Below are positions 17,616 through 20,173 of a DNA stretch of 64,000 nt, one piece after another. Where the stretch lies: assembly GCF_045037415.1 (NCBI RefSeq), contig NZ_CP173438.1, one strand, 5' to 3'. Position 1 is the first letter of the stretch; every line of letters starts with the position of its first letter. A program made the position numbers and the translations under genes. The notes beneath the pieces were generated by a model. The model saw only the letters and a program-made list of their open reading frames with translations, was not told where the DNA came from and searched no databases. The stretch comes from Escherichia coli. GTDB lineage: Bacteria; Pseudomonadota; Gammaproteobacteria; Enterobacterales; Enterobacteriaceae.

Positions 17616-17938
17616 TTTTCGATCCTTTCATTGTGTTGTCGCACATCCCTGGTGCGTTCTGTCGACGCATCTTTCAGGATGTAACAAAGTGTTTGCAAGG
17701 TCGAGTATAAGGAAAGTTACAGCTTCGGGAAGCGAAATATGCTGGATTTTAAGGAGAAGTCATATTTCGCAACTTAATGGTTACATTTGTTTGACATGAA
17801 AATAAAGCCCAACGTGCGGCTTCCAGACTGATGACAACGTCAAAAAAGTACTCGGTCAGTCCCCTCGCCCCTTTTGGGGAGAGGGAGAAAACGGTGCTCA
17901 TGTGGATGACAGGGTACACGGCTTAGGCAGATTAAAAA

Positions 17939-18904
17939 TCATCCAACCCGCTGCTTATCATGCCGATAATTCACCCAGGCGTTGATAATAAACGTCATCA
18001 CCAGAATGCCAAACACCACGCCCAGCGAGACGGCGATCGGAATATGGTAGAAGTCGACAATCAGCATCTTGATACCGATAAACACCAGAATCACCGCCAG
18101 ACCATATTTGAGCATCGAGAAACGCTCTGCCACACCTGCCAGCAGGAAATACATCGCACGCAGGCCGAGGATCGCAAACAGGTTTGAGGTCAGCACAATA
18201 AACGGATCGGTGGTCACGGCGAAGATAGCCGGAATACTATCCACGGCGAAAATCACGTCGCTCAACTCCACCAGAATCAGCACCAGCATCAGCGGCGTGG
18301 CATACAACAAACCATTCTTACGCACAAAGAAATGCTCGTTGTCGATGGTGTCGGTCATGCGCAAATGACCGCGCAGCCAGCGCACCAGCGGCTTGTCGCC
18401 AATGCCTGATTCATCTTCATGGGCGAGCGCCATCTTCACGCCGGTAAACAGCAGGAAGGCACCGAAGATATACAAGATCCAGTCGAACTGTGAAATCAGC
18501 CAGCTACCAGTGAAGATCATGATGGTACGCAGAACAATCGCCCCGAGTACGCCATACACCAGCACGCGGCGTTGTAATGCCGCCGGAACAGAGAAATAGC
18601 TGAACAACATCAGCCAGACAAAGACGTTATCGACCGCCAGCGATTTCTCAATCAGATAACCCGTGAGAAAGGCCAGTGCCTGTGGATCGGCAACGGCGCG
18701 ACCTTCGGTTTGCACCAGATACCACCAGAAAGCGGCGTTAAACAGTAACGACAGCGTCACCCAGACCAGCGACCAGGCCGCAGCCTGTTTCATGGTCATG
18801 GCATGTGCCCCACGACGCCCCTGCAACAACAGGTCGATAGCCAGCATAATGGTGACAACAACAGCGAATCCGCCCCATAGCAACGGCGTGCCGACAGTAT
18901 TCAT
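17939..18904 (-). CDS. alx: TerC-family membrane protein Alx (YgjT)
   Basis: 321-aa [32 protein letters not shown]... Confidence 0.9.
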
Positions 18905-19170
18905 AGAAGTTCCTTACACATAAAAAAACGGCCAACGTCGGAAGACGTCAGCCGCTGCTTTTTATGCATAGACCTCGCCTTCCGGCAAGGTCTCACTTAC
19001 AACAAAAAAGGAATACGTCTGCGTATTCCTTTCGGGTTGCCCGGTGACCGGATGTGGTTTTTCACACACCGTAATGACGATCGACCGACAATGAAGTTAC
19101 TCCCCTTTGCAGGTAACAAAGTATGACAGACCATTCAGTCAGTCAATGGTCTGTTACATACCTTTTACAC
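18905..19170 (-). promoter_or_regulatory. alx 5' leader (pH-responsive RNA element, sRNA SraF region); extent approximate
   Basis: About 280-nt untranslated gap between ygjR stop and alx start with GC-rich paired segments; perfect TATAAT on minus strand at 19177-19182; identity from established knowledge of the alx leader. Confidence 0.5.
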
Positions 19171-19186
19171 TGTTTTACTTTGGCAA

Positions 19187-20173
19187 TTATAGTTTTACGT
19201 TATCTGCCGGAAAAATCACCCCAGTCTGGCGGCGGATCTCAGTCAGCAGTTTGGCGGTGATACGACTGACCGCCAGCCCTGGATGATTCACCAGATGCTC
19301 ATCCACCAGGGTAGCGAACAGCTCTGCTTCGTAGAGCATGGTATTAATATGCTGTGGCTGGGTGAGATCCTGCATCTGGCTGCCACGCGGTACAAAGCAG
19401 ACTTTCTGGCATTCAGAGAGTTTTTCAATCACCAGCGATCCCGCTTCGCCCTGAATCTCGCTTGCCAGGACAGAATCGCTCACTTTTGAGTGCTGCAACG
19501 TAACGCTGAAATCACCGTAATCCATCACCACCACGCCGTGGGCATCCACACCGCTTGCCAGCAAACTGGCGGTTGCCTGCACGCTTTTCGGTTCACCGAA
19601 TAATGCCACCGCCGACGCCAGGCAGTAAAAGCCGATATCCATAATCGAACCGTTGGAGAATGCCGGATTGAAGGTGTTGGGATTCTCTCCGTCCAGGTAA
19701 CGCTGATACCGCGAGGAATACTGGCAATAGTTGAAAAAGACTTTACGCAGTTTGCCGACTTTCGGCAGCGCCTGGCGTAACAGATGAAAGTTCGGCAGGT
19801 AGGCCGTTTTAAATGCCTCAAACAGCACCACCTGATTTTCCCGCGCACAGGCAATGGCGGCATCCACTTCCGCCTGATTCGACGCCAGTGGCTTCTCGCA
19901 AATCACATGAATTTTGTGACTAAGGAAAAGTTGTGTCTGGGAAAAGTGCAGGGAATTTGGGCTGGCAATATACACCGCGTCAATGGCATCGCTTTCTGCC
20001 ATCGCTTCCAGCGACGTAAACAGATGCTCGACAGAAAAATCATTGGCGAAGTGCTGGGCCTGTTCAAGGCTGCGGGAATAGACGGCGGTTAACTTGTATT
20101 TACCGCTCTCATGGGCGGCCTCGACGAACTGGCGAGTGATCCAGTTCGTACCAATCACAGCGAAACGTATCAT
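19187..20173 (-). CDS. ygjR: Gfo/Idh/MocA-family NAD(P)-dependent oxidoreductase YgjR
   Basis: ORF ..MIRFAVIGTNWITRQFVEAAHESGKYKLTAVYSRS..; start at MIRFAV gives 328 aa. Confidence 0.88.
   Translation of the reverse strand: MIRFAVIGTNWITRQFVEAAHESGKYKLTAVYSRSLEQAQHFANDFSVEHLFTSLEAMAESDAIDAVYIASPNSLHFSQTQLFLSHKIHVICEKPLASNQAEVDAAIACARENQVVLFEAFKTAYLPNFHLLRQALPKVGKLRKVFFNYCQYSSRYQRYLDGENPNTFNPAFSNGSIMDIGFYCLASAVALFGEPKSVQATASLLASGVDAHGVVVMDYGDFSVTLQHSKVSDSVLASEIQGEAGSLVIEKLSECQKVCFVPRGSQMQDLTQPQHINTMLYEAELFATLVDEHLVNHPGLAVSRITAKLLTEIRRQTGVIFPADNVKL

Follow-up and report, generated by a model that had tools for sequence, protein, structure and literature searches.

The ygjR-alx spacer of Escherichia coli very probably holds the complete control region of alx, with a pH-tuned Mn2+ riboswitch as its leader

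Between ygjR and alx of Escherichia coli lies an untranslated stretch which annotation leaves empty, and the question that it raises is which signals it carries for the expression of alx. We examined it within a window of 64,000 nucleotides, the whole stretch of DNA that was analysed. According to the list of open reading frames and the sequence, a 334-codon open reading frame on the minus strand (ygjR) ends with the TAA stop codon at 19189-19187, and a 321-codon open reading frame (alx) starts on the same strand with the ATG at 18904. The spacer between this TAA and this ATG measures 282 nt (19186-18905, minus strand), just as an earlier note on this DNA had reported. Gene names were taken from the RefSeq annotation of identical E. 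coli records, which describes ygjR as a member of the Gfo/Idh/MocA family and alx as a TerC-family membrane protein or Mn(2+) exporter. A 701-nt stretch around the spacer was 100% identical to several E. coli chromosomes, and 5419 of 5426 complete E. coli genomes contain the alx control region. The two RefSeq records examined list neither an RNA nor a regulatory feature between ygjR and alx; that the alx leader lies there, on the alx strand, follows from the open reading frames and the annotation of the identical records.

The earlier note took the spacer to be the alx leader (PRE or SraF), expected rather than novel. That identity stands, and so does the expectation: the alx leader is an already known, well-studied and strongly supported regulatory RNA, and our results do not change the current understanding of it. 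The length of 282 nt, the promoter at TATAAT and the description in terms of pH only had to be given up. We are highly confident that alx, the gene for a TerC-family Mn2+ exporter, has its complete control region in the spacer 19186-18905. The leader itself is very probably a Mn2+-sensing riboswitch of the yybP-ykoY family, with a Mn response tuned by pH. What was computed here is the anatomy of the element and how far it is conserved, the covariation in both of its conformers and its near-identity to the studied K-12 sequence; the literature is the source for the binding of Mn, the effect of pH, the activation of translation and the activation by CpxR.

The 5' end of the leader could be placed by means of published residue numbers, since the element is numbered in the literature from its transcription start site (PMC3874183). 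Comparison of these residues with the sequence showed that A11 (L1), C19, C36, A37 (L3), C58, C73/A74, A114 and C127, as well as A131/A132 (loop C), C135, A137, G138, A149-A153 and C155/A156, fit a start at 19111. More than 15 published residue identities map onto the leader in the window, and the numbering fits only if +1 is the U at 19111. Terminated products of ~108 and ~190 nt have been obtained in vitro (PMC9472077). With +1 at 19111, the two products end in the U-tracts of both terminator hairpins. The ~190-nt product is close to the 189 nt reported for SraF. As the AUG occupies nt 208-210, the leader RNA is 207 nt long (19111 to 18905, minus strand) and not 282 nt; its 5' end and its promoter had been set about 70 bases too far upstream. 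The features upstream of the start site are as follows.

19191-19186, minus strand: TATAAT, overlapping the ygjR stop, 75-80 nt upstream of the implied start site
19178-19164, minus strand: predicted CpxR box GTAAA-ACAGT-GTAAA, spanning -67 to -53 relative to +1 of alx
19154-19126, minus strand: hairpin from a perfect inverted repeat of 10 bp, ACAGACCATT-(9 nt)-AATGGTCTGT, with CAUACUUUGUU after it
19146-19141, minus strand: -35 hexamer TTGACT of the alx promoter, 17 bp from the -10 hexamer; its position follows from +1 = 19111
19123-19118, minus strand: conserved -10 hexamer TACTTT of the alx promoter, at -12 to -7

For comparison, we collected 80 alx loci from a set of one genome per species in the Enterobacterales, ranging from Escherichia to Serratia, Yersinia and Pantoea, and aligned 71 distinct leaders; 63 Enterobacteriaceae sequences were aligned for the promoter and the upstream hairpin. 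In these 63 sequences, the T, T and G of the -35 hexamer never change, conservation of its A and C reaches at least 90%, and the -10 hexamer is kept as TA(C/T)TTT. A consensus promoter scan, which needs four of six matches, missed the -10 hexamer TACTTT. Transcription would start at U 19111 from a sigma-70 promoter of the form TTGACT-17-TACTTT.

The TATAAT to which the earlier note had drawn attention is indeed present on the minus strand at the ygjR end, but it lies just outside the interval then assigned to the leader, and five of its six bases are inside ygjR. As a perfect -10 hexamer, it could belong to a second promoter, which would give a leader of ~275 nt that includes the CpxR box and the upstream hairpin. 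We consider this improbable. The best -35 candidate at a spacing of 16-18 bp has only three of six matches, the site is absent from the results of the consensus scan, and the resulting transcript would run into the terminator-like upstream hairpin, while the published product sizes fit a start at 19111. Moreover, the hexamer is a product of the last ygjR codons, CTA TAA. Among the alx loci of the Enterobacterales it is confined to E. coli and its closest relatives and is absent from E. albertii, another Escherichia genome and all other genera, in which ygjR ends 13 nt further downstream. TATAAT at 19191-19186 is thus probably not the alx promoter, and we retain TTGACT-17-TACTTT. A promoter-like arrangement on the plus strand (TTTACA-18-TATAGT, 19164-19193, 10 of 12 matches) was rejected as being at chance level, with one found and 0.8 expected from shuffles; it points into ygjR in the antisense direction and comes from the same AT-rich stretch as TATAAT. 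Two differences from K-12 were seen in this part of the minus strand. Position 19139 is A here and G in K-12; this base, at -28, belongs both to the promoter spacer and to the upstream hairpin's loop. Position 19200, within ygjR, gives AAC in place of the K-12 codon AGC (Asn versus Ser).

The upstream hairpin encloses the -35 hexamer and sits inside the alx promoter. Its cells pair at a rate of 72.7% in the 63 Enterobacteriaceae sequences, compared with 32-42% for slid partners; compensatory changes occur in 8 of 10 pairs, with a covariation score of 0.308 as against 0.09-0.135. The hairpin is probably the intrinsic terminator of ygjR, with a U-rich tail that doubles as the -10 region of alx.

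Further upstream, the CpxR box is the one place in the 64 kb of the window where GTAAANNNNNGTAAA occurs exactly, against a chance expectation of 0.06. Of 79 related loci, 46 have a perfect box and a further 21 a box with a single mismatch. In 70 of the 79 it lies at -67 to -65, and the 5-nt spacer varies freely; among these loci, the Serratia and Yersinia orthologues have no such box. PMC9600279, citing De Wulf 2002, lists alx as activated by CpxR. The GTAAA-N5-GTAAA at 19178-19164 is a perfect consensus, and we predict from its sequence and position that it is the CpxR site of alx.

Downstream of the start site, the complementary segments described by the earlier note could readily be found, and the RNA from 19111 to 18890 folds well below its shuffled controls. 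Its folding energy was -91.6 kcal/mol as compared to -61.3 +/- 4.6 kcal/mol for 200 dinucleotide shuffles (z = -6.55), none of which was as stable. The minimum-free-energy fold contains the four hairpins A-D of the inactive form, and a terminator scan detected two intrinsic-terminator-like hairpins on the minus strand, at 19033-19006 and 18956-18927. The leader can be divided as follows, in the numbering from U 19111.

19111-18984, minus strand: Mn2+ aptamer, nt 1-128, comprising P1.1, L1 (GGGGAGUA, with A11), P1.2, the L2 capping loop (C19-G23), P3/L3, P4 and the returning strands
19040-18999, minus strand: P4 or hairpin B with its U-tract (U103-U108 = 19009-19004), internal intrinsic terminator B, from the terminator scan
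18993-18970, minus strand: hairpin C or P5, nt 119-142, which in the OFF state captures the 3' strand of P1.1, from the minimum-free-energy fold
18983-18940, minus strand: ON helix C/D, nt 129-136 with 165-172 and nt 138-141 with 159-162, A137 bulged, from covariation
18955-18922, minus strand: hairpin D or P6, nt 157-184 plus U-tract, intrinsic terminator D, from the terminator scan
18916-18902, minus strand: alx ribosome-binding site UAAGGA (nt 196-201) and AUG (nt 208-210), read from the sequence

The earlier note had proposed to judge the leader by a covariance-model search and by conserved alternative pairing. Rfam 15 gave nothing at the alx leader at gathering scores, and a search of a 901-nt slice at E <= 10 gave no match of the manganese family RF00080 to it; the weak matches at the locus (STnc370, STnc450, tmRNA and others, E of 2-9) are attributable to chance. 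RF00080 likewise matched neither the K-12 copy of alx nor 17 orthologous loci at E <= 1. As a control, the E. coli mntP aptamer scored 41.6 bits against RF00080 (E = 9e-9), and the family is therefore present in the library. This score of the K-12 mntP leader (record L003, 962-1058) is itself below the RF00080 gathering score of 45, so that a scan at gathering scores would miss mntP too; the K-12 record has no RNA feature annotated at the mntP leader either. We built a covariance model, R1, only from 66 alx aptamer orthologues from outside Escherichia. R1 matched 19111-18984 with 112 bits (E = 3e-24), as its single match in the 64-kb window, and did not find mntP. The alx type is a distinct subclass that the public Rfam model overlooks. 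The model search thus failed with Rfam and succeeded with a model built from orthologues, and only half of the proposed test is usable: the absence of an Rfam match does not refute an alx leader, while the pairing part is informative.

In the Enterobacterales loci, the leader is always directly upstream of alx. Three blocks are invariant in all 71 leaders, namely nt 2-18 (GCAAAGGGGAGUAACUU), C33-A37 of L3 (A37 = 19075) and nt 112-128 (GUAAGUGAGACCUUGCC); nt 7-14 of L1, unchanged in 71 of 71, agree with the RF00080 consensus GGGGAGUAG. A37 of L3 is the metal-coordinating adenosine (PMC12153347, PMC12934788). The aptamer helices pair in 98% of the alignment cells, as against 27-40% for slid controls, and compensatory changes occur in 14 of 31 pairs; none of 500 shuffles reached such values. 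All of this covariation is in P3.1, P3.2 and P4. P1.1 and P1.2 are invariant, and covariation therefore neither supports nor contradicts these two helices. The wobble pairs G72.U113 (71 of 71 leaders) and U32.G64 (69 of 71) are conserved and can work only in RNA of the minus strand, which makes this the functional strand and rules out the plus strand. Only 5 nt (C19-G23) separate P1.2 from P3, which leaves no room for P2, and the canonical four-way junction of P1-P4 is not found here. This agrees with the published description of the alx aptamer as a three-way junction with a 3-nt L2 capping loop in place of P2, an altered L3 and a terminator in P4 (PMC12153347), that is, as a three-way-junction variant of the yybP-ykoY family (PMC12153347, PMC12934788). 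A crystal structure (9JGM) and smFRET document Mn2+ binding by the alx riboswitch (PMC12934788), the Alx protein exports Mn2+ (PMC10197570), and induction of alx translation by alkaline pH and Mn2+ has been published for K-12 and MC4100 (PMC10197570, PMC12153347). The pH tuning has been assigned to the L2 loop (C19, A114) and L3 in a 2026 preprint (PMC12934788).

Peripheral parts of the leader carry large insertions in other species, and the invariant core is kept (record L006, about 1230-1400; records L015, L017, L025, L035, L047 and L055). E. albertii has a REP-like element in P4 that matches the REP-derived Rfam families naRNA4 and ES036, Phytobacter has an insert of ~40 nt in the apical loop of hairpin A, and Siccibacter, Franconibacter, Erwinia and others have longer repeat-like inserts. 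Since the core is kept despite these inserts, the peripheral loops appear to tolerate cargo. Two loci depart from the pattern. In Atlantibacter sp. RC6 (L026), most of the aptamer is deleted and L1 is fused to hairpin C; the promoter, the CpxR box and terminator D remain. Rouxiella aceris (L078) has no aptamer upstream of alx and keeps a hairpin-D-like terminator. Both look like natural loss-of-sensor variants.

We then turned to the expression platform, in which two mutually exclusive sets of helices could be compared across the 71 leaders. In the OFF state, hairpin C pairs in 92% of cells, and shows no covariation because its 5' strand is invariant. Hairpin D, whose extended stem reaches just short of the ribosome-binding site, pairs in 95.5% of cells with three compensatory pairs; the two hairpins together pair in 94%. 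In each of the 71 leaders, six or more of the 8 nt that follow the stem of hairpin D are T. Helix C/D, which excludes hairpins C and D and agrees with the published active structure, was derived by hand and then tested by covariation. It pairs in 96.8% of cells, as against 37-65% for slid partners, and has three compensatory pairs, among them 130:171, which changes from G-C to A-U in 10 sequences, and 132:169, which changes from A-U to U-A in two. As the residues of these two pairs are loop residues in the OFF state, the compensatory changes are specific evidence for the ON helix. Conserved alternative pairing is thus clearly present, with both hairpins C and D and helix C/D maintained. When the active state was folded under constraints, hairpin D persisted and the published ON structure was not obtained.

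The signals around the ribosome-binding site and within P4 were less uniform. The minimum-free-energy fold pairs nt 8-13 with nt 202-207 and nt 16-18 with nt 197-199. Judged by duplex energies between nt 1-20 and the last 25 nt, the leaders do not in general keep a 5' strand that pairs with the ribosome-binding site (mean z of -0.25; 18 of 71 leaders below -1). The accessibility of the Shine-Dalgarno sequence in equilibrium folding rose on average from 0.51 without constraints to 0.60 with the aptamer and helix C/D enforced; this gain is small even in E. coli, in which regulation is proven, and equilibrium folding cannot judge a kinetically controlled switch. Terminator B has a T-rich tail (at least 7 T in an 11-nt window) in only 21 of 71 leaders, and is therefore lineage-restricted; in vitro, ~45% of transcripts terminate at site B (PMC9472077). 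The conservation of terminator D and helix C/D in the 71 leaders, and the lack of it for the 5' strand pairing and terminator B, would fit a riboswitch that works mainly by transcription attenuation in most Enterobacterales, with the large translational effect in E. coli as a lineage-specific addition. We offer this as a tentative reading that may well prove wrong. For E. coli alx, control at the levels of both transcription and translation has been suggested before (PMC10197570). An upstream open reading frame of 22 codons from AUG143 (18969-18901, minus strand), whose UGA overlaps the alx AUG (AUGA), was rejected as a leader peptide: its AUG is absent in 41 of 71 leaders, and in the remainder the frame stops at scattered positions. 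It is probably meaningless.

Taken together with the published work, these features point with high confidence to the following mode of operation. Nucleotides 1-128 would form a three-way-junction aptamer for Mn2+, in which L1 contributes A11, L3 contributes A37 and the L2 capping loop replaces P2. Without Mn2+, the 3' strand of P1.1 would be captured in hairpin C, and hairpin D would then form with its U-tract. Part of the transcripts would terminate at D, and in the remaining ones the freed 5' strand (L1/P1.1) and the extended stem of D would occlude the ribosome-binding site. With Mn2+ bound, P1.1 would be held and the loops of hairpins C and D would pair as helix C/D, so that no terminator would form and the ribosome-binding site would be free. 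Alkaline pH would favour Mn2+ binding, as cytosolic Mn would rise and pH would tune the aptamer.

Two other accounts of the leader have to be weighed against this mechanism. The original PRE model, summarised in PMC3874183, is that of a pH sensor without a ligand, in which alkaline pH lengthens the pausing of RNA polymerase at two sites and leads to a translatable fold without metal. The two alternative structures that it needs are both conserved, and expression is raised by mutations that move pause C or make it longer. However, A37U, which removes the Mn-coordinating adenosine, abolishes the responses to Mn and to pH, including the 68-fold alkaline induction (PMC12153347), and escape from the pause is faster, not slower, at alkaline pH (PMC9472077). 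The metal-binding core of L1 and L3 is invariant in 71 leaders as well, which a pure pausing device would not need. We therefore regard a ligand-free sensor as very unlikely, and the description of the element as responsive to pH only, which the earlier note had adopted, has given way to that of a Mn2+ riboswitch tuned by pH (PMC12153347, PMC12934788). The other account starts from the detection of the element as a small RNA (PMC9472077) and holds that SraF is mainly a free RNA, with transcripts of ~108 and ~190 nt acting in trans and the control of alx being secondary. The two intrinsic terminators inside the leader and the extent of termination at site B in vitro would be in keeping with such a role. 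We find it extremely unlikely, since it has no known target, the T-rich tail of terminator B is kept in so few leaders, the element always lies directly upstream of alx, and the aptamer and the two conformers of the platform between them account for every conserved block. A Mn2+ riboswitch acting in cis on alx remains the reading that we favour.

Several other features were observed in the course of the searches. The plus-strand segment 61862-62011 matches SIB_RNA over its full length (RF00113, 142 bits), which makes it a Sib RNA, the antitoxin in a type I toxin-antitoxin locus of the ibs/sib kind. A tRNA gene whose anticodon is CAU lies at 41568-41640 on the minus strand and scores 73 bits with RF00005. 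Downstream of alx, between alx and sstT, the K-12 sequence contains a long, G-rich palindromic repeat (record L002, 2091-2209) that produces spurious microRNA matches. The alx-sstT spacer is 398 nt in K-12 and 323 nt in the window (17616-17938), and no inverted repeat of at least 14 nt was found in the latter; the strain of the window seems to be without this element.

For genome scanning, the value of this locus lies in correct annotation. Standard pipelines leave the spacer blank, as two RefSeq records and Rfam 15 show, though it holds one of the best-studied riboswitches of E. coli, a leader that joins Mn2+ and pH signals to control a Mn2+ exporter. The manganese model of Rfam misses the whole alx-type three-way-junction subclass in the Enterobacterales, and a dedicated model finds this subclass easily.

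Comparison with known systems was made at three levels. Like other promoters activated by CpxR, such as those of cpxP and degP, alx has a perfect box upstream of the -35 hexamer at a fixed, conserved distance; unlike these, its site is predicted from the sequence, and the orthologues of Serratia and Yersinia are without the box. With the canonical yybP-ykoY riboswitches (RF00080; E. coli mntP, Lactococcus lactis yoaB, Xanthomonas oryzae), the alx leader shares the L1 motif GGGGAGUA, the GUCA...AC core of L3 with its metal-binding adenosine, a location upstream of a Mn2+ exporter, and two coaxial legs closed by P1.1, the 3' strand of which is also used by the expression platform (PMC12153347). 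It differs from them in the absence of P2, in its three-way junction with a 3-nt capping loop, in an L3 that reads GUCAUUAC and not GUCAACAUAC, in the intrinsic terminator carried by P4 and in the tuning of its response by pH; RF00080 misses alx, and R1 misses mntP. Closest of all is the K-12 alx leader (PRE, SraF), which occupies the same locus, is identical at 204 of 207 leader positions and has hairpins A-D, the two terminators, helix C/D, L1, L2, L3 and the ribosome-binding site in common with the leader in the window. The three substitutions are C24U, A43G and A55C. C24U turns a C:G pair into U:G and A43G an A:U pair into G:U, so that both pairs are kept as wobbles, and A55C opens only the loop-closing pair of hairpin A; C55 is the common state in Escherichia and Citrobacter. 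Every residue named in the alx studies is unchanged, and we infer that this three-base variant would behave like the leader of K-12.
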